64,000 nucleotides of DNA, taken from NCBI GenBank assembly GCA_049512815.1, contig JBEKWS010000012.1, forward strand, positions 58,702 through 122,701. The letters run 5' to 3'. The notes beneath the pieces are model-generated. The model made no database searches. It was not told the origin of the DNA and saw only the letters and a program-made list of their open reading frames with translations. This DNA comes from Bacteroidales bacterium (GTDB lineage Bacteria; Bacteroidota; Bacteroidia; Bacteroidales; VadinHA17). Shown here one piece after another: positions 46,269-64,000 of this stretch (positions are counted from its first letter, which is position 1; the number at the start of each line of letters is the position of its first letter). The position numbers and the translations under genes were made by a program.

Positions 46269-49200
46269 TTAAAGTGTTTTCTTGACTTCGAATTCCTGAT
46301 AACCTTCAACTATATCACCCACTTTTATATCGTTGAAATTGTGGATATTAAGTCCACATTCATATCCGCCAACTACTTCTTTTACGTCATCTTTAAAGCG
46401 TTTGAGTGATCCTAGTTCACCGGTATAAATTACAATACCATCGCGAATTATCCTGATTTTGGTATTCCTGGTAATTTTACCCTCTTTAACATAACATCCT
46501 GCAACTGTTCCAACTTTTGTGACCTTGAATATATCACGTATTTCAAGAGTTGCGACAATCTCTTCTCTGACTTCAGGCATTAGCATACCTTCCATTGCGG
46601 ATCTGATTTCCTCAATTGCATTATAGATAATTGAATAGAGACGTACATCAATCTCCTCTTTTTCAGCAAGTTTTCTGGCACTTAAGGATGGCCTTACCTG
46701 AAACCCGACTATAATGGCGTTCGAAGCTGCAGCCAGGAGAACATCTGATTCAGAAATCTGTCCGACAGCTTTATGAATGATGTTAAGCTGGATCTCAGGG
46801 GTTGAGAGTTTAATTAGTGAGTCACTCAAAGCCTCTACTGAACCATCGACATCACCTTTTACTATAATATTAAGTTCCTGGAAATTACCGATAGCAATTC
46901 TTCGGCCTATTTCATCAAGTGTAATGTGTTTCTGAGTACGCAGACCCTGTTCCCTCTGGAGTTGTGCCCTTTTTGTTGCAATATCTTTTGCCTCACGATC
47001 GCTCTCCATAACATTAAATTTGTCGCCAGCCTGTGGTGCACCATTTAATCCCAGGATTAGGGTAGGAGTGGCCGGACCGACTACATCAACCTTATTTCCT
47101 CTTTCGTTGTACATGGCTTTAATATGTCCAAAGCAGCTTCCCGCCAGCATAATATCTCCAATTCTGAGCGTTCCGGCTTTGACCAGTACAGTTGCTGTAA
47201 ATCCCCTGCCCTTATCGAGAGAAGATTCAATAACTGTTCCGATAGCCGGTTTGTCGGGATTGGCTTTTAGCTCTAGCATCTCTGCTTCAAGAAGAATTTT
47301 ATCGAGAAGAAGATCAATATTGAGTCCGCTTTTAGCCGAAATTTCCTGTGATTGATACTTGCCTCCCCAATCTTCAACCAGGTAATTCATATTTGCAAGA
47401 GACTCTTTGATCTTATCAGGATTTGAAGTCGGCTTATCAATTTTATTGATTGCGAATATTATAGGGACTCCTGCTGCTGAAGCATGATTGATTGCTTCTT
47501 TAGTTTGAGGCATAACTCCATCGTCAGCAGCAACTACAATAATTGCAATGTCAGTTATTTGTGCACCACGGGCACGCATTGCAGTAAACGCTTCATGACC
47601 CGGAGTATCGAGGAATGTTATCTGGCGTCCGTCCTCGAGTATGACTCCATATGCACCGATATGCTGGGTAATACCTCCGGCTTCACCCGCAATCACATTG
47701 GTATTCCGGATATAATCAAGCAACTTTGTTTTGCCATGGTCAACATGACCCATCACGGTAACGATAGGAGGTCTTGGTTTGAGATCTACTGCTTCATCAG
47801 CCTCTTCACGTACTGCTTCCTGCAATTCTGCACTGACAAATTCAACTTTGAAACCAAATTCATCCGCAAGAAGAGCCATCGTTTCAGCATCCAGGCGCTG
47901 GTTAATGGAGACAAAAAGCCCAAGGTTCATACATGTAGAAATGATATCCGTTACAGGGATACTCATCATTGATGCAAGCTCATTGACTGAAACAAACTCC
48001 GTAACCTTCAGAATATTCTTATCGAGTTCCTGCTGGTCAACAACCTCCTGGTGCTTTTGACTAATAGCCTCCCTTTTTTCCCGGCGGTATCTTGAACCCT
48101 TTGATTTACCTTTTGTCGTTAGCCTTGCCAGGGTCTCTTTTATCTGCTTTTGAACCTCTTCTTCATTTACTTCAGCCCTGACAGGTCTTTTTTTCACGAC
48201 CTTCTTAGCGCTTGTTTTTTCTTTTTTATCAGTTGCAAATGGTTTAACTACAGGTGTTCCCTCTTTTTCTTTCAATATTCTCTTCCTACGCTTCTTCCTT
48301 CTGAAATCGGAATCGCTGCTGACTCTGACTGGCTGAAATGGAGTAGCTTTCTTTTTTTCTTCCGCTGGCAGGTCTATTTTCCCGACAACCCTTGGTCCCA
48401 CCAGTTTTTTAAAATCAGTTTTATATAGAGAAATAATATCCTCTTCGGGTTCTGGAATTATAACTTCCTCTATAATGTCTTCGATTAAAAACTCTTCAAT
48501 TGGTGGCTCAGGGGTCTTCTCCTCTATAGTTTCAGTTTCTTTCCGTCCGCTAGCTTTAATCGCTCCCTGTTTAAGAATATCCTTTTCTTTGCTTTTCTCT
48601 TTCGCTGAGACTTTTGGCTTCTCTTTCTGTTCCTCTTTTTTTACTGGTTTAATATCTTTAGCAATTGTATCGAGATCGATTTTCCCGACAATATGAAGAT
48701 CAATATTTGATTTAGATTTATTTTCTTCAGCAAGATCCGGAGTAACATGTGTTTCCTTTTCTATCAGGGTTTTGTTCTTTTCAGTCTTTTCAGTTTCAAC
48801 CGGACTTGGAGCAGGTTTTTGTACCGGTTCCTCTTTGGGTGCTGCAATTTTTTCATCCTTTGGCTTTACTGACTTTTCAAGATCAATTTTACCTACAAGT
48901 TTTATATCAGGTTTTTTGATTTCAGTTTTAACGTCTACAGCTTTCTTAACTCCTGAAGAATCTTTGACAAGAACCTCATCATCCCTTTCAGAATCTTCAA
49001 TCTCAATCTTTTCTGAAAAATCACCAATAGAAACAGATTCCTTCTTTCTGTGGAGATCTTTAAGGATGAGTTTTTCAGACTCCTTTTTTACACTGATATC
49101 TGTACTGTATTCTTTTACAAGCAAAATATAAGCTTCATGCGGAAGTTTAGTATTTGGGTTGGGATCAAGATCAAACCCTTTTTTGTGAAGGAATTCCACA

Positions 49201-49271
49201 ATTGTGGATATTCCCACGTTAAATTCGCGGGCAGCTTTACTTAATCTGGTAACCTTAATATCTTCTGTCAT
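46269..49271 (-). CDS. infB: Translation initiation factor IF-2
   Basis: 1000 aa. K/E-rich N-terminal region. G-domain VTVMGHVDHGKTKLLD, DTPGHEAF, NKID. C-terminal beta-barrel domains. Confidence 0.97.
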   Translation of the reverse strand: MTEDIKVTRLSKAAREFNVGISTIVEFLHKKGFDLDPNPNTKLPHEAYILLVKEYSTDISVKKESEKLILKDLHRKKESVSIGDFSEKIEIEDSERDDEVLVKDSSGVKKAVDVKTEIKKPDIKLVGKIDLEKSVKPKDEKIAAPKEEPVQKPAPSPVETEKTEKNKTLIEKETHVTPDLAEENKSKSNIDLHIVGKIDLDTIAKDIKPVKKEEQKEKPKVSAKEKSKEKDILKQGAIKASGRKETETIEEKTPEPPIEEFLIEDIIEEVIIPEPEEDIISLYKTDFKKLVGPRVVGKIDLPAEEKKKATPFQPVRVSSDSDFRRKKRRKRILKEKEGTPVVKPFATDKKEKTSAKKVVKKRPVRAEVNEEEVQKQIKETLARLTTKGKSKGSRYRREKREAISQKHQEVVDQQELDKNILKVTEFVSVNELASMMSIPVTDIISTCMNLGLFVSINQRLDAETMALLADEFGFKVEFVSAELQEAVREEADEAVDLKPRPPIVTVMGHVDHGKTKLLDYIRNTNVIAGEAGGITQHIGAYGVILEDGRQITFLDTPGHEAFTAMRARGAQITDIAIIVVAADDGVMPQTKEAINHASAAGVPIIFAINKIDKPTSNPDKIKESLANMNYLVEDWGGKYQSQEISAKSGLNIDLLLDKILLEAEMLELKANPDKPAIGTVIESSLDKGRGFTATVLVKAGTLRIGDIMLAGSCFGHIKAMYNERGNKVDVVGPATPTLILGLNGAPQAGDKFNVMESDREAKDIATKRAQLQREQGLRTQKHITLDEIGRRIAIGNFQELNIIVKGDVDGSVEALSDSLIKLSTPEIQLNIIHKAVGQISESDVLLAAASNAIIVGFQVRPSLSARKLAEKEEIDVRLYSIIYNAIEEIRSAMEGMLMPEVREEIVATLEIRDIFKVTKVGTVAGCYVKEGKITRNTKIRIIRDGIVIYTGELGSLKRFKDDVKEVVGGYECGLNIHNFNDIKVGDIVEGYQEFEVKKTL

Positions 49272-49334
49272 AAATATAACTTGCCTTTATTAAAACTTCA
49301 AAAAAACTGATTGTGAGTAGTTTATATTTGTATT

Positions 49335-50573
49335 TTATTCAAATTCTGCCCTGAGAATATTAACAACCTCTTTAACAGTTTCCTCTTCAAGATCAGTTCT
49401 CTTAACAAGGTCGCTGATTGAAAGGTTCAGAACGCTTCTTGCAGTATCGCAACCAATTGCTTTGAGCTCTTCTATGATCCAGTCTTCAATTTCATCTTCA
49501 AATTCCTCAAGATTAACATCTTCCTCATCTTCTCCACCTGGTTCCCTGTAAACATCAATTTCATACCCGGTAAGCTGACTTGCCAGTTTAATATTCAGGC
49601 CACCTTTACCAATTGCAAGAGATACTTCATTAGGTTTCAGATATATTTCTGCCCGCTTTGTCTCTTCAACCAGTTTGATAGAGGTAATCTTTGCAGGACT
49701 CAGTGCTCTCTGTATAAAGAGCTGATTGTTAGAAGTATAATTGATAACATCTATGTTTTCGTTGCGTAATTCCCTGACTATACCATGTATCCTTGATCCT
49801 TTCATACCAACGCATGCTCCAACCGGATCAATTCTCTCATCGTAGGATTCAACAGCTACTTTGGCGCGTTCCCCTGGTACCCTTACAATGTTTTTAATAG
49901 TAATCAGACCATCAAATATTTCAGGAACTTCAAGTTCAAATAATCTTTCCAGGAATACCGGTGAGGTACGGCTTATGATGATAAAAGGTGTATTGTTTCT
50001 CATTTCAACCTTTATAACTACAGCCCTTATTGAATCTCCTTTACGGAAATGGTCAGAAGGAATCTGTTCGCTTTTAGGCAGAATAAGTTCATTCCCATCA
50101 TCATCAAGAACAAGTATTTCTCTCTTCCATACCTGGTAAACTTCTCCGGTAACTATTTCACCGATCCTGTCTTTGTATTTGATATAGATGTTATTTTTCT
50201 CCAGATCGAGAATTCGTGCAGTAAGGTTTTGTCTTAGAGATAAAATAGCTCTTCTTCCAAAGTCAAGAAACTTGACCTCATCAGAAACTTCTTCTCCGAC
50301 TTCATAATCTTCATCAATCTCTTTGGCCTTTGAAAGAGGTATCTGCATAACAGGATCTGTCAACTCCTTGTCTTCTACCACAACCCTGTTCCTCCATATT
50401 TCAAAGTCACCTTTATCGATATTGACAATAATGTCGAAATTATCTGCTGAACCGTATTTCTTTGCAAGCATACTTCTGAAGACATCTTCAAGAACGCTCA
50501 TCATTGTAGGACGGTCAATATTTTTCAGCTCCTTGAATTCCGAAAAAGTGTCGATTAAATTAACATTTTCCAT
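49335..50573 (-). CDS. nusA: Transcription termination/antitermination factor NusA
   Basis: 412 aa with N-terminal domain, S1 domain (GEIVTGEVYQV) and KH domains (ACVGMKGSRI, LAIGKGGLNIKLASQLTG). Sits between rimP and infB. Confidence 0.95.
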   Translation of the reverse strand: MENVNLIDTFSEFKELKNIDRPTMMSVLEDVFRSMLAKKYGSADNFDIIVNIDKGDFEIWRNRVVVEDKELTDPVMQIPLSKAKEIDEDYEVGEEVSDEVKFLDFGRRAILSLRQNLTARILDLEKNNIYIKYKDRIGEIVTGEVYQVWKREILVLDDDGNELILPKSEQIPSDHFRKGDSIRAVVIKVEMRNNTPFIIISRTSPVFLERLFELEVPEIFDGLITIKNIVRVPGERAKVAVESYDERIDPVGACVGMKGSRIHGIVRELRNENIDVINYTSNNQLFIQRALSPAKITSIKLVEETKRAEIYLKPNEVSLAIGKGGLNIKLASQLTGYEIDVYREPGGEDEEDVNLEEFEDEIEDWIIEELKAIGCDTARSVLNLSISDLVKRTDLEEETVKEVVNILRAEFE

Positions 50574-50593
50574 CTGGTGTAAACCTCTTATTA

Positions 50594-51046
50594 TTATTTA
50601 ATTGTCAAAATAACTCTAGTAGATTTTATCTGTTCAAAATTGAAAGAAACATCCTTCAATTCTTTTGTTCTTCCCTTAACTTTTATTTCAGCCTCAAGTT
50701 CAAATCCCCCAGCCGTAACATTCTTAAGTTTCCCTGCAAATTTTGATCCTTCATTGTCAACAACCTCAACTTTTTTTCCTTCATTTTTGAAATATTGTTC
50801 AATAACTCCAAAAGAAGCATCCAGCCCAGGTGAGGATACCTGCAATTCAAAATCCTCTTTATCACGGTCGAGACCTTTATCAATATGCCGGTGTATTGCA
50901 GCACACTCATCTATTGTTATACCTTCATTTTTATCGGCAAGTACAGTGATCCGGTTCGAACTGCTTACTTTTACAGCAACCAGAAAAAGTCCGGTTCCAT
51001 TTATGAACTCTTCGACTAATCCCTGTATTTTATGTTTTTCAATCAT
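50594..51046 (-). CDS. rimP: Ribosome maturation factor RimP
   Basis: 150 aa. LEVSSPGLD-type motif present as LQVSSPGLD. Conserved position upstream of nusA. Confidence 0.9.
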   Translation of the reverse strand: MIEKHKIQGLVEEFINGTGLFLVAVKVSSSNRITVLADKNEGITIDECAAIHRHIDKGLDRDKEDFELQVSSPGLDASFGVIEQYFKNEGKKVEVVDNEGSKFAGKLKNVTAGGFELEAEIKVKGRTKELKDVSFNFEQIKSTRVILTIK

Positions 51047-52222: not shown

Positions 52223-52229
52223 CAAAAAA

Positions 52230-52245
52230 TTGGGCTAAAGCCCAA
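52230..52245 (-). terminator. Intrinsic terminator closing the efflux operon
   Basis: Minus strand reads TTGGGC-TTTA-GCCCAA followed by TTTTTTGCT. No T-run on the plus-strand side. Confidence 0.5.
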
Positions 52246-52269: not shown

Positions 52270-52986
52270 TTACATAAATTTTTCCCGCTTCTGAAGATTG
52301 TAAAGAGCCACAAGTAAAAAAATGATAGATCCGGTAATCAGGACTATACGGTTTTTAAAAATAATAATTGCCCATGTTGTCTCATTTATATCAAGTGGCA
52401 TGTTAAATGGATTAAGGAACACGTTCCATTGGCTTTTATTCAATGACTCACTTAGAATCAGAAATATCAGCCCGAATGCTATCATGACAACAGCTGTTCC
52501 ATTTCCATTTCTGATAATAGTAGAAAGCATAAAAGCCATTACTCCAAGAAAAATAACAGGCAACATTACCTGCAATGTCATATTTGCAATACGGAATTTA
52601 ACAATAAAAAAAGAAGATAATAATGTAAAAACAAGCATGATGAGGGAAGCAATAATAAATATGAGTACAATTCTTACGAGCCAGACTTTGTACCTGTAGT
52701 TAGGTATTCCAAATAATATTTCAATAGTTCGGGCATCCTGATCATTCTGAATTCCAAAAACAGAAGGATAAAAGACTAAAAGGACCCCTGAGAAAAGAAA
52801 AATTCCATACAGATCCCCCATTTTTGAAACGTCATTTGAGAACACATAAATTATTGAAAGTCCGATATAGAACAAAACTGATCCGGCAAGAAACCAGATG
52901 AACTTATTTGCAAAGATGATCCGTAAATTATAGATGATCATTTTATAAATAAGGATGTAATTATTATATAATCTTGTGCCTTTCAT
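52270..52986 (-). CDS. ABC-2-type transporter permease (six hydrophobic segments)
   Basis: 238 aa and highly hydrophobic, with ~6 predicted helices. Begins 24 nt after the stop of the gene carrying the ABC ATPase domain. An alternative Met lies 15 codons in. Confidence 0.55.
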   Translation of the reverse strand: MKGTRLYNNYILIYKMIIYNLRIIFANKFIWFLAGSVLFYIGLSIIYVFSNDVSKMGDLYGIFLFSGVLLVFYPSVFGIQNDQDARTIEILFGIPNYRYKVWLVRIVLIFIIASLIMLVFTLLSSFFIVKFRIANMTLQVMLPVIFLGVMAFMLSTIIRNGNGTAVVMIAFGLIFLILSESLNKSQWNVFLNPFNMPLDINETTWAIIIFKNRIVLITGSIIFLLVALYNLQKREKFM

Positions 52987-53010
52987 TATATTGATATTAA
53001 CCTGTTTATT

Positions 53011-56000
53011 CTAAGAGGTTGTTCTGTCTTTTTTTCTGAGAAGCCACAAATAAGCGTCCTCAAGATTTGGAGTCACACTAATTGCATCCTGATGGGGCTT
53101 ATCTTCAGAAATACATCTTACTCTGACTTTTTCTCCTTCGGACATATGATGTACAACCAGTTGACTCTCAATAAAACCAGCAAAGTCCTGGGTAGGAATA
53201 TTGAATTGCCATACATGTCCTTCCGCTTCTTTTGTCATATCAATAGGTTTACCCAGATACATCAGAAGCCCCTTATTAAGCACAGCAACCTGGTAGCAGG
53301 AGCTCGAAACATCTTCAATAATGTGGGTAGAGAATATAACCACCCTGTCACGACTAAGTTCTACAAGAAGATTTCTGAACCTGATCCTTTCTCTGGGATC
53401 GAGACCGGCTGTTGGTTCATCAACAACCAGTATACGAGGCAGGTGAAGCAATATTTGTGCTATTCCCATTCTTTGCTTCATTCCACCTGAATATGAACTT
53501 ATTTTTTCATGTCTGCGGTCTTCCAGATGAACAGCTTTAAGGACATAGGTGACTCTATCCTCCCGTGTCTTAACATCAATAATATTCTTAAGCATAGCCT
53601 GGTAGTGAAGATATTCATGGGCTGTCATGTTCTCATAACTTCCAAACTCCTGGGGAAGGTATCCGATGAGTCCCTGCAGCTCTTCTCTCTTGTTTTGAGT
53701 ATCCATTCCATTTATCCAGACTTTACCGTAACTCTGCTCAAGGATACCGCATATAATTCGCATAAGGGTCGTTTTGCCTGCACCGTTTGGTCCAAGAAGG
53801 CCGAACATGCCGTTACCGATATTCAATGAGACACAACTTAAAGCTTTGAAAGGCTTCTTCTTTCTGCCTATCAATGGTATTGCGGCAACTATCTTATAGA
53901 AATTCTTACGGATATTTTTAAACCTGCCTGCGAGGCGATAGATGTCTATATTCTCAGAACTCATTTTAATTCCTGTCTTGTAAATTATAAGGCCGGAAAA
54001 CCAGAGGACTCCCAGTATAAGCACAATTACTATATTATGCCACCTTATCTGAAAGAGATAAATATTGCCCAATGGTATGAGCCAGAATATCAGTCCATCA
54101 AGAATTTTCAGGATCCTGGTATATATTTTCTTTCTTCCTGATGATGCAAAATTTGTCAGTAATTTTTTGAAAGGGATCCAGATACCAAGAAGAGAAAACC
54201 AGATACATATACTGAAGACAAAAATCCAGAAGCCGCTTTTCAGATAAAAATATGTAAAATAGATAACAAACCCTATTAATGGAAGTTGCCAGGTCAGATG
54301 GTTCATATCACTCCATGATGTGTAGTTTTTTGCAAGACCCAGCCTTTCCCTGATTTTAGCACCACCATTCCATTCTCTCAGAAGATGGCTGTCCCTATCA
54401 TATATTTTAACAAGACTCTGAACATAAATATTTATAGGTTCATCAGGAGATATTACAGTCTCTCTTGCCTTCCTCAGGGTATTGATAAAGAACCAGGTAC
54501 CTGCAGGTACAAGGATTAAGGAGAGTATTGTTGTGATTAATTTCCAGAGAAATTGATCAATAAAACTATATATCAAAAGTATAAGTAAAGCAAATATTGT
54601 GATTTGGATAATCTTTGTTTTCCAATTGAGTGAGTAGATCCATTGAAGAGAATTTTCGAGACCAGAATAAAAGGTCGGAATAAATATGAGTGTTAGCATT
54701 GTACTCAGAGTCAGGCCTCCGATGACAGTAATTGCAAATGCAGCACCGATGGAAGCGACAAATTCAGACTTTCCCAAAGCCAGTGGGAAAAGGGCTATTA
54801 CAGTTGTTGATGCAGTGATCAGAATAGGTCTGACCCGTGCAATGCCAGCAGTCATTAAAGCGCGTGAGCGTCTGTAGCCTCTCTTCCTTAAAATATTGGT
54901 GTAATCGATAAGGAGAATCCCATTGTTTACAACCACACCGAGAAGTATAAGGAATCCGATAAGTGTATTGGCATTAAGGAGAGAATTGTTTGTAAGAATA
55001 AGTGCAATAAGCGAGCCCAATGCTGCAAGTGGTATACTGAACATCAGAACCACCGGGGTTGAAAGTGATTCAAAAACCGATGCAAGGATCATATAAATAA
55101 GAAGGAATGCCATTCCGATAAGCCAATAGAAATCTTTTAACGGGTCCTCTTCATGAACGACTTCCACAGCTATTCCTGAAGGTATATTGATACCTGAAAC
55201 TATTGCTTCAATTTCGGCTCTTGCACCTTCCAGCAGATCTTTTGAGCTTATTATATCTGAATTGAAGCTATATGTGACTGTAATCTTTTTTTCCCGGTTT
55301 TCCCTGTGGATGTTACCCATACCGGATGAGAATACAATATTTGATAACTCCTGTATTTCCATTAAATTGGAATTGCTTCCTGTCACCTCGAGGTTTTTAA
55401 GATCATCAATTGTCTTGTCCGTGTTTACCTTGACCTTCCCAGATTCATCAGCATATTTCAGTGTTATATCGTATGTTTCGGTCCCCTGTAAAAAAGTTGC
55501 ACCTGAAGAATATTCTTTCCCAAAGGTGGAAAGCGCTGAAGATATATTGTCCAGAGTGAAATTATTACGTCCAATATAATCCATATCAAACTTTAAATGT
55601 ACTTCAGGGGTATTGTCCTGAACATTAACATTCACACTGCTAATTGTTGACAGATTTTGAATGGCTGCCTTAATGTCATCTGAAATGTTTTTCATCTGGT
55701 CGAAATTCTGCCCTTTTATAATGACACTTTCGGTGGTTGTTCCAATACCCAGAAGGTTCATAAAGTTTGCACCGGGATTTACCGCTCCGGCTCCTCCGGC
55801 TGCTCCGGTATAGCCCCCACCGGAAGAAATCTCATCCATTTCGATTTCTCCTGTCCTAAGGTTTCTGACTTTTTCAAGAATATCATTTTTAATTTCCGGA
55901 AGGGACCTTTTGCTTATCTTATCCCATTTTTCAGCAAGGTTTATAGTCATTGTTGCATCAGTTTCCTCCACCCTGCTTACTATATCTCCTTTTTCCGGTA

Positions 56001-57756
56001 TTCCGCTAAGAGCATGTTCAATTTCGGTAACAAAGGCGTCTGTCTTTTCAAGCGTTGATCCGGAAGGCATTGTAACAGAAAGTCTGAAACTTGAAGTCTC
56101 AACTTCCTTTGTTGAAGATACACTTAAACTAAGACTGATAAGAAGTGCAGCAAAGAACACTACGAGTGTTCCTATTATAGTACCTGCCGGATTCCTCATA
56201 CTGGCTTTTAGGGTGAGATAATACCCCTGAATGAGCCGGTTATGTATTGAAAGCTTTTTAAATATTCCCAAATCCGATACCTTCGCCAATTTAAGAATAA
56301 AATGTGCTGCCATCGGGATAAGAAGCAGAGCAACGGATAATGAAATGATCAGGGTTGAGACAATTGAAACACCTATATTCTTGCCGATAATTTTGATCAT
56401 GAAGTTGTCGGAGAAAAGAAAGGGAAGGAAAACGGTTATAGTCGTTAAAGTTGCCGCAACGATTGATCTCCATACCTCACTCGTTCCCTGCTTAACAGCT
56501 GTATCTATATCCACACCCTGGCTGACAAGACGGTAAATATTCTCCAGGACAACCACCGAATTATCCACAAGCATACCAATGGCAAGAGCCATTCCAACAA
56601 GTGTCAGACTGTTTATTGAGATATTATATGCATAAAAAAAGTTAAAAGCTGCATAAACCGAGATAGGAATTGAAAGTGCAATTATAAAAACCAGGCGGAT
56701 ATTACGTAAAAAGAACCATAATATAAGTACCGCGAGTAAACCTCCGATGACAGCCAGATGAATTATCTGGTTTAAGTTGTTCTCCATAATTTCGGCATTA
56801 TTGTTCTGAACAACTATTTCAACACCTTCGGATTTCAGATTATCATTCAGCGTCTTAACCACATCAAGTGTTTTGTGTGAAAGATCGATCAAGTTGACCT
56901 GATTATCGTTTACCAGAGTAATTGTCACTGCATCAAGCCCATCGACCCTGCTGTATGAGGTCTGCTCTTTAACCCCAAAAATAATGTCGGCAATGTCTTT
57001 CAGGGTTACGGAACCGTTTGGTTTCACAATAATATTCCCGATGTCTTTAACATCAGTATATTCAGATGTCACATTTACAAAAAATTTATTGGTTCCCTCT
57101 TTCACCGATCCGACAAAAGTTTTATCCTTGCCATTATTGTTCAGAAGGTTCGTGACCTGTGCCATGGTTATCCCGTAAGCTTTGCATGCTTTTTCATTTA
57201 GCCTGACCTCAATAGATTTTTGCTGACCTCCATAAATCTGAACACCCGCTATACCAGTAATATTCTGAAGTTCAGGTGATATTTCTTTATCCGTTATGTT
57301 GCGGATCCTGTCTATTCCTCCTTCACCTCTGATCTGTAATTCCATGAACTGGCTGGTAATCTGTGTGAGATCAATTTTTACCACGGTAATTTTGAACACA
57401 ACCGGCAGAGTTGCCTTAACTGAATTTATCTTTTCCTGTAGTTTCAGGTTGGCATATTTCATATTGGCTCTCTGATTGTAATAAAGGATTATCGTCCCGG
57501 AGCGGGAATTAATGTTTGATTCAATCTTTTCAATGCCTTCAAGAGTACCAATTGCACCTTCTAGTGGAACTATTGCCTTGCTTTCAATATAATTCGGATC
57601 CAGCTCAAGAGATGTCGTAACCTGAACAATGAGAGTAGGAAGCTGAGAATTAGGAAAAAGTTCTATCGGGAGTCTCTTATAGGAAACATAGCCAAGCAAT
57701 GTAAGCCCGATAAAGAACATACAAATCAGCACTTTTCTCTTAATAATGAAATTCAT
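53011..57756 (-). CDS. RND efflux permease fused to six extra TM helices and a C-terminal ABC ATP-binding domain
   Basis: Uninterrupted 1581-codon ORF. aa 1-~1040 are RND (GMLVDNSVVVLENI, GVVVNNGILLIDY, 12 TM layout). aa ~1041-1300 carry six hydrophobic segments. aa ~1300-1581 are an ABC NBD (Walker A GPNGAGKT at 53770-53793, Q-loop YLPQE, signature YSGGMKQR, Walker B ILVVDEPTAGLD, H-loop FSTHII). Confidence 0.85.
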   Translation of the reverse strand: MNFIIKRKVLICMFFIGLTLLGYVSYKRLPIELFPNSQLPTLIVQVTTSLELDPNYIESKAIVPLEGAIGTLEGIEKIESNINSRSGTIILYYNQRANMKYANLKLQEKINSVKATLPVVFKITVVKIDLTQITSQFMELQIRGEGGIDRIRNITDKEISPELQNITGIAGVQIYGGQQKSIEVRLNEKACKAYGITMAQVTNLLNNNGKDKTFVGSVKEGTNKFFVNVTSEYTDVKDIGNIIVKPNGSVTLKDIADIIFGVKEQTSYSRVDGLDAVTITLVNDNQVNLIDLSHKTLDVVKTLNDNLKSEGVEIVVQNNNAEIMENNLNQIIHLAVIGGLLAVLILWFFLRNIRLVFIIALSIPISVYAAFNFFYAYNISINSLTLVGMALAIGMLVDNSVVVLENIYRLVSQGVDIDTAVKQGTSEVWRSIVAATLTTITVFLPFLFSDNFMIKIIGKNIGVSIVSTLIISLSVALLLIPMAAHFILKLAKVSDLGIFKKLSIHNRLIQGYYLTLKASMRNPAGTIIGTLVVFFAALLISLSLSVSSTKEVETSSFRLSVTMPSGSTLEKTDAFVTEIEHALSGIPEKGDIVSRVEETDATMTINLAEKWDKISKRSLPEIKNDILEKVRNLRTGEIEMDEISSGGGYTGAAGGAGAVNPGANFMNLLGIGTTTESVIIKGQNFDQMKNISDDIKAAIQNLSTISSVNVNVQDNTPEVHLKFDMDYIGRNNFTLDNISSALSTFGKEYSSGATFLQGTETYDITLKYADESGKVKVNTDKTIDDLKNLEVTGSNSNLMEIQELSNIVFSSGMGNIHRENREKKITVTYSFNSDIISSKDLLEGARAEIEAIVSGINIPSGIAVEVVHEEDPLKDFYWLIGMAFLLIYMILASVFESLSTPVVLMFSIPLAALGSLIALILTNNSLLNANTLIGFLILLGVVVNNGILLIDYTNILRKRGYRRSRALMTAGIARVRPILITASTTVIALFPLALGKSEFVASIGAAFAITVIGGLTLSTMLTLIFIPTFYSGLENSLQWIYSLNWKTKIIQITIFALLILLIYSFIDQFLWKLITTILSLILVPAGTWFFINTLRKARETVISPDEPINIYVQSLVKIYDRDSHLLREWNGGAKIRERLGLAKNYTSWSDMNHLTWQLPLIGFVIYFTYFYLKSGFWIFVFSICIWFSLLGIWIPFKKLLTNFASSGRKKIYTRILKILDGLIFWLIPLGNIYLFQIRWHNIVIVLILGVLWFSGLIIYKTGIKMSSENIDIYRLAGRFKNIRKNFYKIVAAIPLIGRKKKPFKALSCVSLNIGNGMFGLLGPNGAGKTTLMRIICGILEQSYGKVWINGMDTQNKREELQGLIGYLPQEFGSYENMTAHEYLHYQAMLKNIIDVKTREDRVTYVLKAVHLEDRRHEKISSYSGGMKQRMGIAQILLHLPRILVVDEPTAGLDPRERIRFRNLLVELSRDRVVIFSTHIIEDVSSSCYQVAVLNKGLLMYLGKPIDMTKEAEGHVWQFNIPTQDFAGFIESQLVVHHMSEGEKVRVRCISEDKPHQDAISVTPNLEDAYLWLLRKKDRTTS

Positions 57757-57792
57757 TTTATTTACCGGTCTTTGTCATCATAAATAAACTAT

Positions 57793-60700
57793 TCATTCAC
57801 TGGTTTTTTTTCTTGTGATTAAATCAGTGAAGGAATCAAAAACCCAATATACACAGGGTATCACTATCAGAGTGAGGATAGTTGATGTAACCAGTCCGCC
57901 AATCACTGCAAGCGCCATTGGAGATCTGAGTGATGCACTTTCTCCGATACCGATTGTAAGTGGTAGAAGCGCAAATATTGTTGTGAGACTTGTCATTAAG
58001 ATAGGTCTGATTCTCTGCGATCCTGCTGTTATTATTGAGTCTTTTTTGTTTAATCCGGTCTGACGCAGCTGATTAATGCGGTCAATAAGAATAATTGCAT
58101 TACTTACAGCAATTCCTCCAAGCATTATAATGCCTATATATGCCATCATATTGAGGCTTTTTCCCAGCACGAAGAATGTCAGAATAGTACCGACAGCAGC
58201 AAGTGGTATTGTCAATAAAATAACAAAAGGTTGAATTATTGACTCAAATTCAGCTGCCAGTACCATAAATACCAAAATAATTGACAGAATCAAAGCGAAT
58301 GTCAGATTAGACATTGATTCTTTTCTCATCAATTCCTCACCTGTTATTTGAATTCTATAGTTAGCCGGTAATGGAACTGAACTCAACATTTCTCTGGCAT
58401 CTTTAATGACCTTATCAAAAGGCTTTGATTTATTAACCATGGCGTATATATAGCTTGTCCTGCTCTGATCCTGCCGGGTAATTTCTCTGGGAGATATAAC
58501 TTTTTTAATTGTGGCTAATGAACTCAATGGTACTTTTACTGATCCTGCAGTTATAAGGAGATCTTCAAGCTGATGCAGGGAAAGATCTCCGAGCTTAATA
58601 ACAATATCTTTCTCTTCGCCTTCCTTTTCCATCGTGCCTGCAGAAGCTCCGGAGAGATAACTTTGTATCTGGCTTATTACACTGGTTACAGAAACATTAT
58701 AATAACTGGTCTTAAACCTGTCAACCGCTACCTCTATTTCGGGGGTTCCCTCATCAAGGGAAGTTGTAATATTATATAGACCTCTGTTATTCTGAAGCAC
58801 CGTTTTTGATTCATTAATTATCTTTTCGATTTCTGTATAGTCTTGCCCTTTTACTTCAACAACAAATGGGGCTTCGCTGGTACCCAAAGTAGTCTGCAGT
58901 TCTGATTCTTCCTGGGAAAAGCTTATCTCAAGATCAGGAATGGTTTTAAGGTATTTCTCAACTGTTCTGATAGCTTCTTCCGTCACAGATGAATATTCAT
59001 TTTTAAGAAATATTTTAATATTTGCAACATTCTCATTTGTGGAAGTTGCCGATTGAGTAGTTGTTGTATTTATATCCCCGCCTGCCTGGCTGTAAATCAT
59101 TCTTATTTTGTTACCAAGAAGTTCATTGACAGTTCCTTCTATTTCCTTGATTGTGCTTTGAGTACGTTCAAGATTTGTCCCTTCCGGAAGTTTCAATCCA
59201 ATAGTAAATTCGGATGAAGCTGATTTTGGCATATATTCACTTCCAAGTTTTGGTATGAGAAGTACTGCTAATCCCATAAACAGAATGGAAAGGATGATTA
59301 CAATCAATCTCTTTTCGATGATTTTTGAAAGAAACTTTGGATACCATCTGAATTGCATCGGGCTGCTTAGCTGAACATTCTGGCTTTTCTTTTCACGAAA
59401 AAGGGTGTTTACCAGCATTGGGATGACGAGCATTGCAACAAATAAAGATGAGATCAGGGCAAAAGCCACCGTCCAGGCCTGGTCCTTGAACATTTCACCG
59501 GAAGCTCCCCTGAGATAAACAATTGGCAGGAAGACAACTATAGTCGTTATTGTAGAAGCTGTGATGGCTCCTCCGACCTGTCCGGTACCAACGATTGCCG
59601 CCTCGCGTAATGACATTCCTTCATCTCTGTTTCTGGTAATATTTTCGAGTACGACAATCGCATCATCGACCAGCCTGCCGGCCCCGAGTGCCAGCCCTCC
59701 CAAAGTCATAATATTTAATGTCAGGTGATTAAAATACATAAGGTTGAAGGTTGCTATTATAGAAATAGGTATGGCAACACTGACCACCATCGTTGTTCCT
59801 ATCCTTCGAAGAAAAACATACAGAACAATCATTGCAAGGGAAATGCCGATAAGCCCGGAATTTTTTACCTCTTTGATGGCATTGTCAATGTATTTTCCCT
59901 GATCCTTTACAACTATGAATTCATATCCGGGAAGAGCTTTTGCAAGAGTGCCAAAAGCATTATTAAGGTTCTTAACGGCTTCAACGGTGTTAAATTTGGG
60001 TTCTTTGTAAATTGACAGACCTATACAGCGTTCTCCATTAAGAGTGATAATATTTTGAGGATCTTTGTTTTCATATTTTATGGTTGCGACATCGCGAAGA
60101 TATACAGGAACTTTATCTGTTGAAGAAGTTGCGGTTGTGCTTCCGGTTGTTGTTACTGTCTGGGAGGAAGCCTGTTTGAAACCGATTACTATGTTCTCAA
60201 GATCTGTTAAATTACTCATTACACTTACCCCTTTGACTACATATTTAAGCCCCAGGTCAACTATAGAACCTCCGGATACATTCTTGTTATAATTTGCTAT
60301 CTGTACTGCAATTGCGTCTGAGGTCAATCCAAAAGATTCAAGTATATATTTATTGGTTTCAATTACAACCTGGCTCTCTTCCTGGCCAGTAAGTTTTACA
60401 TCTGCTATGCCTTCAATTCTGATAAGTTCGTTCCGGATATAGTTTTCTGCAATTTTCCTTAATTCATCCATGTCAGTAATTGCCTTATTCTTTAATCCCA
60501 CGATCATTACAGGTGAAGCATTAGGATCGTATTGGGAAATATCAAACTCTGTGAGATCTGAATTCTGGCTGAATGAGTTTAGTGCCTTCTGCAAGTCGAG
60601 AAAGGCCTCGTCCATATCTTTGTTCCAGTTATATTCAACCGTTATTTCTGCTGTACCAACCTGAGATACAGACGATACCTTGATGACATCACTCTGTCTC

Positions 60701-60918
60701 ATGCAGAGCGATTCTATCTGTTCAACATAGTTTTTTTCGATTTCTTCCGGTGGTTTTTCTCCGGCCGTGAGCTGAATATATATCTTCGGATTGTTCAGGT
60801 TTGGGAAGAGATCAGTTCCCAGTTTTCCAAGAGATATCACCCCAAGGAGGACTATACCGAGTACAAGCATTAAAACAGTAACCGGGTATTTTACAGCAAA
60901 TTGGGCAATCCTGTTCAT
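57793..60918 (-). CDS. RND efflux permease (AcrB/MdtB/C-like)
   Basis: 1041 aa. TM1 plus large periplasmic loops. TM4 GRLVDDAIVVLENITR. Second-half GIAVSNAIILIDRIN. Stop lies 36 nt before the next RND gene. Confidence 0.9.
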   Translation of the reverse strand: MNRIAQFAVKYPVTVLMLVLGIVLLGVISLGKLGTDLFPNLNNPKIYIQLTAGEKPPEEIEKNYVEQIESLCMRQSDVIKVSSVSQVGTAEITVEYNWNKDMDEAFLDLQKALNSFSQNSDLTEFDISQYDPNASPVMIVGLKNKAITDMDELRKIAENYIRNELIRIEGIADVKLTGQEESQVVIETNKYILESFGLTSDAIAVQIANYNKNVSGGSIVDLGLKYVVKGVSVMSNLTDLENIVIGFKQASSQTVTTTGSTTATSSTDKVPVYLRDVATIKYENKDPQNIITLNGERCIGLSIYKEPKFNTVEAVKNLNNAFGTLAKALPGYEFIVVKDQGKYIDNAIKEVKNSGLIGISLAMIVLYVFLRRIGTTMVVSVAIPISIIATFNLMYFNHLTLNIMTLGGLALGAGRLVDDAIVVLENITRNRDEGMSLREAAIVGTGQVGGAITASTITTIVVFLPIVYLRGASGEMFKDQAWTVAFALISSLFVAMLVIPMLVNTLFREKKSQNVQLSSPMQFRWYPKFLSKIIEKRLIVIILSILFMGLAVLLIPKLGSEYMPKSASSEFTIGLKLPEGTNLERTQSTIKEIEGTVNELLGNKIRMIYSQAGGDINTTTTQSATSTNENVANIKIFLKNEYSSVTEEAIRTVEKYLKTIPDLEISFSQEESELQTTLGTSEAPFVVEVKGQDYTEIEKIINESKTVLQNNRGLYNITTSLDEGTPEIEVAVDRFKTSYYNVSVTSVISQIQSYLSGASAGTMEKEGEEKDIVIKLGDLSLHQLEDLLITAGSVKVPLSSLATIKKVISPREITRQDQSRTSYIYAMVNKSKPFDKVIKDAREMLSSVPLPANYRIQITGEELMRKESMSNLTFALILSIILVFMVLAAEFESIIQPFVILLTIPLAAVGTILTFFVLGKSLNMMAYIGIIMLGGIAVSNAIILIDRINQLRQTGLNKKDSIITAGSQRIRPILMTSLTTIFALLPLTIGIGESASLRSPMALAVIGGLVTSTILTLIVIPCVYWVFDSFTDLITRKKTSE

Positions 60919-60923
60919 GATTT

Positions 60924-61979
60924 TTATTTAACTATTTTAACCTTTGACCTGGTGCTCAGCGTTTCAAAACCAACGGTTACAAAGCGTTCGTTCTTTGACA
61001 GACCTCCGGTTACTTCAACATCAGTCAGGTTCTCAATACCGGTCTTAATTATCCGTTCAGAAGCTAATCCCCCACGATCGATAACGAAGATAGTTTTACC
61101 TCTCTGCCGTGCCAGAATTATACTTTTAGGTATTACAATAACGGAGTCTTTATGGGTTATTACAATATCTGCTTTGACGAACATCCCCGGCAATAGTTGA
61201 TATTTTGGATTATGTATCAGTATTGTTCCGGGGAAAGTTCTTGTATCGGCATTTATCGCAGGTGATAGTTGGGTTACATTCCCGATTAAGGTGTCCTTTG
61301 GAATAGTATAATTTGTCAACTTGACTACCTCATCAGGTTTTATTACTGAGACATATTTCTCAGGTAACTGTACATTCATATACATCATCTGGTAATCCAT
61401 TATTTCGACCATATCTGAACCCGTATTAACCCTGGTCCCCTGAGTGTAATATGGTAACTCAACTATTACGCCGTCTATAGGAGCAATAATCCTGGTTTTT
61501 GCCATCGAAAGATTTGCACTTACCAGTGCCGACTTGGCATTCGCCCTATTGATTCCTGCTGTTTTAAGATCAAAAAGCGTAACACCTCCCTTTTCATATA
61601 ATGATTCCTGTTTTTTGAGCTCGCTCTCCGTGAGTTCGAGATTAAGCTGGGTGGTTTCAAGTTTTATATCATTGATATATTGCTGATCCTCCAATCTGGC
61701 AATCAGATCACCGGTTTTGACTTTATCATTTAACTGCCATGCTTTTCCTGTTCGTGGATTTTTTTCAAGAAAATAGTTTGCTGTGATTTCCGATTTTACC
61801 AGAATCTGACCTATCGGAAAAGCTGTTCCCGATGTATTAACATATTCTTCAATTGATTTTAGAGTGGCATCCTGTACAGAAACAGGAATTTCAACATCGG
61901 CATTAAGATTCTGATTCTTGTTATTGCAGCTGATAGCCGCAAAAGCCATAGCTATTATTATGAATAAACTTTTTTTCAT
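60924..61979 (-). CDS. Efflux periplasmic adaptor (membrane fusion protein, HlyD/RND-MFP family), lipoprotein
   Basis: Lipobox (FAAISC). Lipoyl/hairpin/beta-barrel order, with IIAPIDGVIVEL and LLPGMFVKADI motifs. 5-nt gap to the RND gene. Confidence 0.85.
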   Translation of the reverse strand: MKKSLFIIIAMAFAAISCNNKNQNLNADVEIPVSVQDATLKSIEEYVNTSGTAFPIGQILVKSEITANYFLEKNPRTGKAWQLNDKVKTGDLIARLEDQQYINDIKLETTQLNLELTESELKKQESLYEKGGVTLFDLKTAGINRANAKSALVSANLSMAKTRIIAPIDGVIVELPYYTQGTRVNTGSDMVEIMDYQMMYMNVQLPEKYVSVIKPDEVVKLTNYTIPKDTLIGNVTQLSPAINADTRTFPGTILIHNPKYQLLPGMFVKADIVITHKDSVIVIPKSIILARQRGKTIFVIDRGGLASERIIKTGIENLTDVEVTGGLSKNERFVTVGFETLSTRSKVKIVK

Positions 61980-61992
61980 ATGTTATTTATTT

Positions 61993-63486
61993 TTAATATT
62001 TTAATGTCTTCACAGGGATAACAGGTTGTTTCTTCTCAAAATCGTAAAGTGTCAGTATTTTTAAATTCAGTAGTTCGAGTTTATATGATATTAAAGAATT
62101 TGTGTAATTGAGCTTGTTTTGAGAGAGCTGGTTCTCATAAATACTCAGATCCATTCCCGTCAGGTCCCCGTTTTTATACTTTTCAAGGTTTAAGTCGTAA
62201 GTTAGTTGCGCATTATTGACCGACTGACGTGCGATTACTATCTGATTTATGAGATTTTTAAGATTTCTGTAACTCTGTCTTATAGCTAAGATTATACTGT
62301 TCTGTTCTACCCCGAGATCAATTTTATTTGACTCAATAGTTGCTTCACTTGCCTTTATTCTAGCTTTTTCTTCTCCCCAATCCCAGACAGGAATCTGAAA
62401 CGACAATGACACATTTTCATTATTTTTTGGGTCATTATAAATATCTTTTAAATATTTATTATTTCCATTATATCCAAATGAAAGGGCAAGGTTTCCATGG
62501 AATTCATTAAGTGCCTTAGTCTGAATAAGATTAAGCTGTGATGTTTCAATGTTTATCTGACTTTCTCTGATTTCCATCCTTGTCGCGAGCCCCTGATCAA
62601 TGGCAAATGCTATATCGATTTTAACAGTAGTATCAACCGTGATGTTTGGTATTACAATAATATCATCATACAGGCTCATACCTATCAGGTTTTTAAAAGC
62701 ATCCTTGGAATTTTCAAAAGCAACCTGCTTGTTTTCATAATCTGACCTGGTTGTTGCAAGGTTCAACTCTGCCTGAAATTTTTCTGACTGGGCTGAAATT
62801 CCGGCATCAGCTTTATTCTTTGTTATTTCATAACTTTTCATCATGTCCTGATAAGCCTGGTTTGAAATATCCATGCTTTGCTGCGCCTGATAAACCGCAT
62901 AAAATGCCTGGGAAACGCTTTGTTCCATTGTCAGATGTTGTATTGCATAGTTAAGCTGGGCAGTCTCAAGTTGCAACTGGAGCGTTTTAAGATTGAGCTT
63001 GGTATGGTTGTAAGTGAATAAAGGCTGATTTAACTGAATTGAAAGATCATTATTATAAGCTACCCCGGCAGTTGGGAATTTTGCATTATAGATGTTATTG
63101 GTATAACTAAAATTGTCACTCAGCGTAATAGTAGCATCAGTAGGTAAAAAAGGCTGGACAACTGTAAATGAACCGGAACTCTGCACATCCTTCGTAGTGT
63201 TAAAATCAGAAAAACTGCTATTGAACGCCCTATCCTGTGAATAAGTTAAAGGATTTACTGACAAAGCAAATTTTGATTTTAGTGCATCATTCTGGGCATT
63301 AAGGTTTTCCTGACTCCTGATAAGGCTAAGCCTTGTCTTTAATATAGTCGGACTATTTGATTCAGCTGTAGAGAGAGCCTGTTCCAGAGTAACTCCGGTC
63401 TGTGAGAATCCTTTGAATATCAATAGATTCATCAGTACGACTATTAAAAGGATAATTCGGTTTTTCCTGTTGAATTGTTTTTCCAT
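61993..63486 (-). CDS. TolC-family outer membrane efflux protein
   Basis: 497 aa. Signal peptide. Two repeated halves rich in coiled-coil heptads (LEQAL...AESNSPTIL, LNLATTRSDYENK...), typical of OMF proteins. 13-nt gap to the MFP gene. Confidence 0.85.
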   Translation of the reverse strand: MEKQFNRKNRIILLIVVLMNLLIFKGFSQTGVTLEQALSTAESNSPTILKTRLSLIRSQENLNAQNDALKSKFALSVNPLTYSQDRAFNSSFSDFNTTKDVQSSGSFTVVQPFLPTDATITLSDNFSYTNNIYNAKFPTAGVAYNNDLSIQLNQPLFTYNHTKLNLKTLQLQLETAQLNYAIQHLTMEQSVSQAFYAVYQAQQSMDISNQAYQDMMKSYEITKNKADAGISAQSEKFQAELNLATTRSDYENKQVAFENSKDAFKNLIGMSLYDDIIVIPNITVDTTVKIDIAFAIDQGLATRMEIRESQINIETSQLNLIQTKALNEFHGNLALSFGYNGNNKYLKDIYNDPKNNENVSLSFQIPVWDWGEEKARIKASEATIESNKIDLGVEQNSIILAIRQSYRNLKNLINQIVIARQSVNNAQLTYDLNLEKYKNGDLTGMDLSIYENQLSQNKLNYTNSLISYKLELLNLKILTLYDFEKKQPVIPVKTLKY

Positions 63487-63543
63487 TCTATTCTTATTTA
63501 AATCCTGATTTTACTATCAACTTTTTACTTTTGTTTGAACAAT

Positions 63544-63563
63544 GGACATGCCATGGCATGTCC
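63544..63563. promoter_or_regulatory. Perfect 20-bp palindrome upstream of the efflux operon (operator or terminator hairpin)
   Basis: GGACATGCCATGGCATGTCC equals its own reverse complement. It lies 58 nt upstream of the TolC-like ATG and 68 nt downstream of the preceding gene's stop. Confidence 0.4.
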
Positions 63564-63603
63564 CTACTTTTGTCTTTTATCTTAAACCTTCTGGCCTTTC
63601 GCC

Positions 63604-63631
63604 TTTTTACTTTTTACTTTTTACTTTTAAC
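63604..63631. repeat. Heptamer tandem repeat (TTTTTAC)x3 plus one degenerate unit
   Basis: TTTTTAC TTTTTAC TTTTTAC TTTTAAC directly abuts the stop codon (63632-63634) of the upstream minus-strand gene. Confidence 0.6.
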
Positions 63632-64000
63632 TTACTTCTGTCTTATCCATTTTATGGCATCTCCAATAACGGCCCTTCCGGTTGAGAGATTTGAAAGAAC
63701 AACTTTCGCGGTGTCGGCTTTGAGGTAATAAGTGCCTAGTTTGTTCCATCCGTTCTCAGCATTTTCATATTCAAGAGATATCTCCTCACTTCCTCCATCA
63801 TGATAAATCCGATAGTGGAATTCTTTATATGGCTGGGAAGGCGGTCCGCCTCCTTCTCTTCCCTGGCCTCCGGCCCCACCTGGTCCCTGTGCTCCACCCG
63901 TTCTTGCACCTCCTCCGAAACCTCCTGCTCTGATCATCATCCGATCAGCAGTTTTACCTATAAAACAGAAAATATCGTAATAACCTGGTTTGTCGATAGA
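63632..64000 (-). CDS. C-terminal part of a larger protein. It ends in a golvesin-C-terminal-like domain (5' end outside the window)
   Basis: The minus-strand frame is open from nt 64000 (SIDKPGYYDIFCFIGKTADRMM...). The tail HYRIYHDGGSEEISLEYENAENGWNKLGTYYLKADTAKVVLSNLSTGRAVIGDAIKWI matches the pattern Y.i.h.gG....v.q....g.W..LG.y.f......V.LSN...G.V.aDAi.f. Confidence 0.45.
   Translation of the reverse strand, partial: SIDKPGYYDIFCFIGKTADRMMIRAGGFGGGARTGGAQGPGGAGGQGREGGGPPSQPYKEFHYRIYHDGGSEEISLEYENAENGWNKLGTYYLKADTAKVVLSNLSTGRAVIGDAIKWIRQK

Follow-up and report, generated by a model that had tools for sequence, protein, structure and literature searches.

Tripartite efflux systems are classed by the engine in their inner membrane, which is a proton-driven resistance-nodulation-division (RND) permease, an ATP-driven ATP-binding cassette (ABC) transporter, or a transporter of the major facilitator superfamily (MFS). 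MdtABC-TolC of E. coli has tandem RND genes and an MdtB2C heterotrimer, and in YbhGFSR, an ABC-2 system, an adaptor is combined with two different permeases. Single-component inner-membrane pumps are also known to cooperate with RND tripartite pumps without physical contact. Here we describe an operon in which RND and ABC-2 components occur together. It was found on the minus strand of a 64,000-nt stretch of Bacteroidales DNA (hereafter the window; GenBank contig JBEKWS010000012.1, positions 58,702 to 122,701), and its source contig, the 148.8-kb contig L085 of a metagenome-assembled genome (MAG), was retrieved by exact-sequence match to the gene for the outer-membrane factor (OMF). Positions are window coordinates unless L085 is named. 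One of the two RND permeases, RND2, is covalently joined to an ABC-2-type nucleotide-binding domain (NBD) via six extra membrane helices. We favor, with about as much doubt as confidence, the reading that the gene products form a single composite exporter across the envelope, with an ABC-2 module tethered to a conduit made of RND permeases, a membrane fusion protein (MFP), and an OMF.

An RND permease fused to a split ABC-2-type NBD

The fusion gene is a single uninterrupted open reading frame (ORF), the product of which matches ACR_tran over residues 2-1031 (E = 6.5e-160) and ABC_tran over residues 1311-1450 (E = 1.5e-28). RND2 and its neighbor RND1 (residues 4-1027) both match the ACR_tran profile (positions 1-1020) end to end. 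RND permease and NBD are thus physically coupled, and no chain combining RND and ABC parts was found in the PDB. An earlier interpretation made from the letters alone (the sequence-only reading) had assigned a TolC-like OMF, an MFP adaptor, RND-1, and RND-2::NBD, and these families were borne out by matches to OEP, RND_mfp, ACR_tran (twice), and ABC_tran. The MFP scored above the cut-off of TIGR01730 (170.8 bits versus 94.9), and the OMF was under that of TIGR01844 (105 bits). The cognate MFP and OMF of a tripartite pump are both encoded inside the operon.

The C-terminal 551 residues of the fusion were modeled with AlphaFold2 using an alignment of 81 sequences (mean predicted local distance difference test [pLDDT], 75.8). 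The first two extra transmembrane (TM) helices, TM13 and TM14, correspond to model helices 15-35 and 39-68 (pLDDT 85-91), coincide with hydropathy peaks, and are conserved in homologs. When profiles were compared in a sliding manner, the segment beyond them, NIYVQSLVKIYDRDSHLL, alone aligned well with the N-terminal β1/A-loop of the operon's free ATPase (NBD-A; z = 5.3, runner-up 3.6), and its K1117 and A-loop Tyr1119 (K87 and Y89 of the model) are invariant in the 81 sequences. AlphaFold2 placed a β-strand at model residues 80-88, with low confidence (block means of 76 for residues 71-80 and 58 for residues 81-90; pLDDT < 50 at residues 87-91). Past this strand the model continues with an amphipathic helix, and it ends with the remaining NBD and a C-terminal domain. 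In between, four long helices (model residues 118-141, 145-175, 179-209, and 212-237; pLDDT 80-88) make up a membrane insertion. The loop between its second and third helices is probably cytoplasmic because it is strongly basic.

The fused NBD (NBD-B) is split, with about 180 amino acids (aa) that include four membrane helices lying between β1/A-loop and Walker A. The insertion point is fixed by short-linker relatives (P0278, P0295, and P0322) that keep the strand (…IEIRNLCKIYP…) contiguous with the NBD, only ~25 residues from the rest of it. Since the added helices are even in number (2 + 4), the established topology of RND permeases places the NBD in the cytoplasm. The linker helices are highly conserved in the alignment of homologs, with many invariant Trp and Pro residues. 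For ABC proteins, we have seen no description of an NBD that is interrupted by four membrane helices.

The motifs of NBD-B are canonical (Walker A at 1322-1329 with K1328, Q1369, YSGGMKQR at 1422-1429, D1446-E1447, and H1478), and many of these positions are invariant across the 81 homologs. All catalytic motifs of NBD-A are canonical as well, and judging by these motifs both NBDs look active. The two are 42% identical over 277 residues. Among NCBIfam models, NBD-B matched GldA best (173 bits) together with DrrA, and NBD-A matched DrrA best (189 bits) and GldA second (186 bits), all under the cut-offs. In a Foldseek search with the linker and NBD model, TM_1403, ABCA1/4/7 (with their R-domain), and NosF were nearest and LptB was also among the relatives; the matches were dominated by the NBD, and nothing informative was returned for the membrane part. 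The type of the fused NBD points to ABC-2 transporters of the DrrA/GldA/NosF/ABCA lineage, and profile searches detected no match to FtsX or MacB_PCD in any protein of the operon. In a neighbor-joining tree of NBD cores, which carries no support values and gives only a hint, fused NBDs stood apart from free NBDs.

The operon comprises seven genes

The sequence-only reading had described a five-gene operon with one ATPase/permease pair. Its five co-oriented ORFs on the minus strand (52270-63486), with gaps of 13, 5, 36, and 24 nt, were confirmed by the ORF listing, and so was the hairpin plus T-run at 52230-52245 that closes the set. The hairpin (TTGGGC-TTTA-GCCCAA, followed by TTTTTT) is located directly past the last stop codon and resembles an intrinsic terminator, with a 6-bp stem (four G-C pairs) and a 4-nt loop. 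The gene count itself was wrong. A sixth gene, BIG, is cut by the window edge, and the ORF at 63632-64000 holds its 3' end; in full it spans L085 6340-9855 (1171 aa). A seventh gene, encoding NBD-A (297 aa, L085 5429-6322), lies 17 nt upstream of BIG, outside the window. The full unit is therefore ATPase (NBD-A) – BIG – OMF – MFP – RND1 – RND2::NBD – PERM, of which the window holds the distal five genes, and it has two NBDs and two putative ABC-2-type membrane subunits instead of a single pair. With the upstream genes included, the two NBDs and two membrane domains of an ABC transporter are present at the gene level. The features are listed in Table 1.

Table 1. Operon features in window coordinates
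Feature	Position	Strand	Description
BIG 3' end	63632-64000	-	Last ~122 codons, Golvesin_C domain; frame open to window edge
BIG–OMF spacer	63487-63631 (= L085 9856-10000)	-	145 nt, A-rich
OMF	61993-63486	-	497 aa, TolC-like, N-terminal signal peptide; PF02321 OEP, E = 4.9e-41
MFP adaptor	60924-61979	-	351 aa, lipoprotein-type N-terminus (…AAISC); TIGR01730 RND_mfp
RND-1	57793-60918	-	1041 aa, full-length 12-TM RND permease; ACR_tran 4-1027, E = 1e-211
RND2::NBD fusion	53011-57756	-	1581 aa, one ORF; ACR_tran and ABC_tran
RND-2 core	54652-57756	-	Residues 1-1035 of the 1581-aa fusion
TM13 and TM14	54463-54624	-	Residues ~1045-1098, straight after RND TM12
Displaced NBD β1 and A-loop	54379-54432	-	NIYVQSLVKIYDRDSHLL, residues 1109-1126
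Four-helix membrane insertion in NBD	53956-54315	-	Residues ~1148-1267
Rest of NBD and C-terminal regulatory-type domain	53011-53862	-	ABC_tran
PERM	52270-52986	-	238 aa, 6-TM, putative divergent ABC-2/NosY-like permease
Terminator-like hairpin and T-run	52224-52245	-	Closes operon

The fusion and its gene order are conserved across distant lineages

The distribution of the fusion was analyzed with its C-terminal 551 residues as query. One genome per species was scanned, which gave 36 loci with a complete linker and NBD, and full-length fusions were recovered from genome scans and from a library of 1.84 billion 50%-identity representatives. Many homologs, with 54-90% identity, carried both PF00873 and PF00005. 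The fusion ORF is intact (1562-1616 aa) in every well-assembled genome among the 36 species loci (about 30 genomes from several lineages of the FCB group). An assembly or frameshift artifact was rejected on this ground, since breaks were seen only in assemblies in which neighboring genes are fragmented too. Among the best 150 representatives of the 50%-identity library, ~45 are RND::NBD fusions of at least 1340 aa. The fusion is real and ancient.

The loci span Bacteroidales, Marinilabiliales, Cytophagales, Calditrichota, and Latescibacterota. Carriers were found among Bacteroidales, Rikenellaceae, Marinilabiliaceae, Cyclobacteriaceae (with Marivirga tractuosa and M. sericea also among the carriers), and Prolixibacteraceae (Draconibacterium mangrovi, Prolixibacter bellariivorans, and Maribellus maritimus); further carriers are Parabacteroides massiliensis, Bacteroides sp. 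224, Proteiniphilum, a Calditrichaceae MAG, and two Latescibacterota MAGs.

A synteny comparison had been proposed with the sequence-only reading, and it showed the linkage to be conserved. The complete BIG – OMF – MFP – RND1 – fusion – PERM series was present in 25 of the 36 genome loci, and 10 of the other 11 departed from it only by truncation at a contig end or by an extra unrelated NBD match downstream. In one Latescibacterota locus (L038), BLAST found neither the OMF nor the Golvesin_C domain. When metagenomes were scanned with the C-terminal part of BIG, 80 contigs were obtained; all 80 were consistent with the order ATPase – BIG – OMF – MFP – RND1 – RND2::NBD, and 28 were complete over this span. 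Two tandem RND paralogs with one adaptor were conserved in all loci. Conservation of the gene order is far beyond chance, and the seven components co-occur as a set. Downstream of PERM, no accessory, regulatory, or biosynthetic genes were conserved across loci.

BIG and PERM, the two candidate ABC-2 membrane subunits

BIG has ~7 N-terminal TM helices (ABC-2-like), a large periplasmic region resembling M1 peptidases, and a C-terminal Golvesin_C domain, which we take to be carbohydrate-binding-like. One BIG ortholog exceeded the cut-off of ABC2_membrane_2 (31.9 bits versus 27.2), and others matched weakly. Golvesin_C was clear in the orthologs, and Peptidase_M1 was weak (E between 1e-4 and 0.08, restricted to the C-terminal portion of PF01433). 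The HExxH zinc motif and the GxMEN exopeptidase motif were absent from all 53 BIG orthologs. We therefore rejected an active M1 peptidase and regard this domain as catalytically dead. Comparison of the BIG sequence with the PDB returned only noise from Gly-rich linkers. Its residues ~848-875 and ~1075-1100 are Gly-rich, of low complexity, and poorly conserved; they flank the region before Golvesin_C and gave spurious matches to the linkers of single-chain variable fragments (scFv).

In each FCB-type locus that includes the position, PERM directly follows the fusion gene, and 5919 clusters of PERM homologs were found. JGI names some PERM members, and also BIG, as NosY-type permeases. We asked whether the linker of the fusion is a degenerate ABC-2 domain, and hhalign of linker versus PERM versus the N-terminal part of BIG gave nothing significant (E = 0.06-0.19). 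A 678-aa protein from a 2.7-kb ENA contig (P0075) has ~130 N-terminal residues that correspond to the N-terminal half of PERM and are joined to linker and NBD exactly at the RND/linker boundary; it represents either an assembly chimera or a rearranged architecture.

The RND pair has a reduced proton relay

The solved chain nearest to RND2 is MdtB (9lyq_B). The RND pair scored 553 and 440 bits with the NCBIfam model RND_permease_2, below its cut-off of 1250. The sequence-only reading had drawn an analogy to the hetero-trimers of MdtB/MdtC; it stands for tandem paralogs at the gene level and is weakened by divergence, because RND1 and RND2 are 27% identical versus 50% for MdtB and MdtC.

Proton relay residues were located by alignment to AcrB, MdtB, and MdtC and counted over 30 RND2 and 65 RND1 orthologs. 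At the position of AcrB D408, RND2 has N in 27 orthologs, S in two, and T in one, and RND1 has N in 60 and D in five. At K940, N is found in 30/30 RND2 proteins, and RND1 has N in 60 and S in five. The window proteins have D407, D408, S940, R971, and T978 (AcrB numbering) in RND1 and D398 (=D407), N399 (=D408), N944 (=K940), R974 (=R971), and T981 (=T978) in RND2. Positions 408 and 940 of RND1 covary, being N/N in 60 of the 65 and D/S in the same five, which include the window protein. The full D408/K940 pair of AcrB, MdtB, and MdtC is thus missing from both paralogs. Among fused RNDs of the library with a readable motif, 31 of 32 had the D-N/N-N signature in TM4 and 21 of 23 had it in TM10, in a survey confined to the orthologs and fused RNDs. 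Judged from these alignments, the relay differs from the one that defines characterized HAE-1 pumps and retains one Asp and the Arg.

These observations bear on an alternative to the composite exporter, in which the RND permease is driven or gated by ATP. A dimer of NBD-A and NBD-B would act on RND2 via the six linker helices, partly or wholly replacing proton coupling, and BIG and PERM would serve as stators or in an accessory role and form no translocation path of their own. The loss of the D408-K940 pair from both paralogs, the recurrence of D-N/N-N in library fusions, and the strong conservation of the linker helices with their invariant Trp and Pro residues would all fit such a machine. 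The same alignments tell against it at three positions, since the equivalents of D407, R971, and T978 are invariant in RND2 (30/30 each) and RND1 (65/65 each), and SecDF needs no more than one Asp-Arg pair to couple to protons. The limited span of the D-N/N-N survey also reduces its weight here. Moreover, two putative ABC-2-type membrane subunits are always present in this operon type, as a complete ABC transporter needs. We hold an ATP-driven or ATP-gated RND permease to be possible but doubtful.

Relatives with a short linker

The distance from the Arg equivalent to R973 (two residues past R971) to Walker A defines two linker classes, one of ~330-358 residues with the four-TM insertion and one of ~150-258 residues without it. 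A distant lineage of the second class (P0285; loci L169/L170) has the order MFP – ATPase – ABC-2 permease – RND – 902-aa BIG-like protein – RND::NBD – OMF, in which the same seven components recur, reshuffled. Each part of the L169 set except its ABC-2 permease has one matching protein in the operon described here; the ATPase is 44% identical to NBD-A, the RND permease 35% to RND1, and the fused NBD 44% to NBD-B. The 902-aa protein matches the middle region of BIG weakly. The L169 ABC-2 permease, which lies upstream of the fusion and after the free ATPase, had no BLAST match to PERM and was equated with it through weak ABC2_membrane Pfam matches.

This recurrence bears on a second alternative, in which the operon encodes separate transporters, namely an RND tripartite pump and one or two ABC-2 transporters for related substrates, which would be co-expressed and co-localized; the fusion would then serve stoichiometry or targeting, with no mechanical coupling or substrate hand-off. 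Contact-free cooperation between single-component and RND pumps is an established precedent for it, and each NBD gene adjoins a permease gene (ATPase-BIG and NBD-PERM), an arrangement compatible with two homodimeric half-systems. However, the seven components stay together in L169/L170 despite their reshuffled order, and co-expression hardly explains a fusion kept across distant lineages, a conserved 265-aa membrane linker, or a split NBD. Homodimeric NBDs on a trimeric RND permease would in addition create a mismatch of 3-fold and 2-fold symmetry. We consider separate transporters unlikely. That the RND and ABC-2 modules form one system with one adaptor and one OMF, as the sequence-only reading had proposed, is strongly supported by the intact fusion, the linkage, and the recurrence in L169; its parts list lacked the second NBD and the giant permease.

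Other short-linker fusions were solitary. P0295, P0278, P0317, and P0308 (loci L167, L168, L171, and L172; 1425-1487 aa) had no visibly linked MFP, OMF, free ATPase, or ABC-2 permease. An unrelated ABC ATPase/ABC-2 permease pair lies on the opposite strand ~8 kb from the fusion in L168, where an unidentified partial ORF is located just upstream of the fusion, and the context of L172 (PSCyt/PSD1/DUF1501 and N_methyl genes) is presumably that of a PVC-group genome. Fusions of this kind, without an adjoining ABC-2 permease, would also be expected of an RND permease that is itself driven or gated by ATP, which remains the main rival to the composite exporter because the relay is reduced and solitary fusions exist.

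Genomic setting of the operon

The operon is in a core chromosomal location. On its upstream side it is adjoined by a divergent HD-domain gene, lpxD, an lpxC-fabZ fusion, and lpxA (L085 625-5228), and on the other flank, within the window, by a radical-SAM gene followed by rimP-nusA-infB. The rimP-nusA-infB housekeeping operon (46269-51046, minus strand) and a gene for a 2479-aa SprA, the type IX secretion translocon (31650-39089, plus strand), fit a Bacteroidota chromosome. The lpx linkage is kept in the closer clade of metagenome contigs and is gone in the distant loci L157-L166; being confined in this way, it was set aside as a functional clue.

A machine for envelope biogenesis, and not for efflux of drugs or toxins, is a third alternative. 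It would export or insert a lipid, glycolipid, or lipopeptide that the cell makes for its own outer membrane or surface. The position of the operon between lpxA/lpxC-fabZ/lpxD and rimP-nusA-infB would suit such a role, and so would its single copy, with no signs of mobile elements over the stretches inspected. LptB and lipid-handling ABCA proteins among the nearest structural relatives of the NBD, and the dead M1-like domain and Golvesin_C of BIG, would fit it too. The lpx neighborhood is limited to the closer clade, however, and no biosynthetic genes are conserved beside the operon. As a statement about the substrate it is compatible with the composite exporter and not exclusive of it, and we give this role a low probability.

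In the BIG–OMF spacer, a 7-nt unit occurs in 4.4 copies. The spacer also holds a perfect 20-nt palindrome (GGACATGCCATGGCATGTCC), with no T-run behind it on the operon strand. The exact Bacteroidota -7 motif (TAnnTTTG) did not occur on the operon strand of either intergenic region searched, this spacer included. Sigma-70-like promoter matches numbered 68, moderately above the mean of 50.0 (standard deviation, 7.4) in shuffled sequences. At the same site, a relative (L005, 501-887) has 24 copies of a 16-nt unit (GAAATGGAGAGGGGGA). The spacer is repeat-prone and variable, and BIG and OMF abut or overlap in other genomes.

A hard-wired two-step exporter as the favored mechanism

A composite exporter might work as follows. 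NBD-B would dimerize with the always co-encoded NBD-A, a pairing we propose because a trimeric RND permease cannot pair three fused NBDs symmetrically, and BIG and PERM would supply the two ABC-2 membrane domains. Starting from the cytoplasmic side, this ATP-driven ABC-2 module, resembling type V transporters, would extract or flip a substrate that is amphipathic or linked to a lipid, and the periplasmic domain of BIG would hold it. The tethered RND permease, probably a mixed trimer of RND1 and RND2, would then expel the substrate through the single MFP-OMF duct. We infer such a hard-wired two-step export as the most economical mechanism. The type V-like NBD, the dead peptidase domain, and Golvesin_C hint loosely at an amphipathic lipid, glycolipid, or lipopeptide as the substrate.

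Several points weigh against this mechanism. The four short-linker fusions that are solitary have no ABC-2 permease or free ATPase nearby, so the fused NBD may in some cases do without those partners, unless their genes lie elsewhere. We propose the pairing of NBD-A with NBD-B on grounds of symmetry and co-occurrence. The "ABC-2 permease" label that the sequence-only reading gave to the 238-aa PERM is weak, because the window protein has no Pfam match and three of 26 orthologs match ABC2_membrane_3 (best E = 4.9e-6), _4, or _2. The AlphaFold2 model of PERM, built with only homologs at least 79% identical, had a pLDDT of 55 and was too poor for judging the fold. By hhalign, PERM is not detectably homologous to the N-terminal part of BIG, nor is either of them to the linker helices. 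Lastly, no consensus promoter was found in the intergenic regions searched, and it is the spacing of the genes that suggests a single transcript.

A shared conduit, an ABC module that feeds the RND pump, and an ATPase that acts on the RND permease could each account for the sequence. On a further reading, that of a dual-energized machine, the effect of ATP hydrolysis by the NBD-A/NBD-B pair would be transmitted mechanically through the six helices into an RND protomer with a reduced relay, so that ATP and the proton motive force drive or gate one cycle. We regard this as conceivable though doubtful. If true, it would constitute a fourth class of tripartite efflux beside RND, ABC, and MFS, and the free paralogous NBD would solve the mismatch of 3-fold and 2-fold symmetry.

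The operon welds a proton-driven and an ATP-driven engine into one polypeptide, in a conserved and environmentally abundant lineage. It is a natural test case for how inner-membrane pumps hand substrate to RND pumps, for whether ATP hydrolysis can couple to the RND cycle, and for how a dimeric ATPase fits a trimeric transporter. Experiments are feasible in cultured carriers (M. tractuosa, P. bellariivorans, D. mangrovi, M. maritimus, and P. massiliensis).

Comparison with known systems

We found no description of an RND-ABC fusion, of this operon, or of the permease/M1 architecture in the open-access literature, and the accessible portion of a 2021 Chemical Reviews article on tripartite systems does not mention such a fusion. 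Public annotation hides the composite system: at NCBI the fusion is named "efflux RND transporter permease subunit" and BIG and PERM "hypothetical protein." The JGI product name of the fusion, "AcrB/ABC-type … ATPase subunit," places its composite domain content in databases already.

GldAFG comes from the same phylum, and GldA is among the best NCBIfam matches of both NBDs. Both scores are far under the GldA cut-off of 402.6, however, and the operon has no equivalents of GldF or GldG and a different genomic context. With NosDFY(L) and ABCA proteins (type V / ABC-2) it shares an NBD that carries a regulatory domain at its C-terminus and whose nearest structures are TM_1403, NosF, and ABCA1/4/7. 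BIG in turn resembles ABCA proteins in having an extracytoplasmic domain of large size. That domain is M1-like with Golvesin_C, not the β-helix of NosD or the extracellular domain of ABCA proteins; there are no Nos genes and no copper-enzyme context, and of the two NBDs one belongs to a fusion with an RND permease and is interrupted by a membrane insertion.

MacAB-TolC, DevBCA-HgdD, and YbhGFSR resemble the operon in having an ABC ATPase encoded together with an MFP and an OMF. Unlike it, they lack an RND component, and MacB and DevC are FtsX-type four-TM permeases with a periplasmic domain, not ABC-2 permeases; the MFP of the operon is of the RND_mfp type. MdtABC-TolC shares with the operon its tandem RND genes and single MFP, and the NCBIfam models of MdtB and MdtC are among the matches of both paralogs. 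RND1 and RND2 score 257-359 bits with these models versus cut-offs of 1584-1774, and they are less similar to each other than MdtB and MdtC are (27% versus 50% identity). The present system also differs from MdtABC in that the D408/K940 pair is missing, the OMF is encoded in the operon, and RND2 has six extra TM helices and an NBD.

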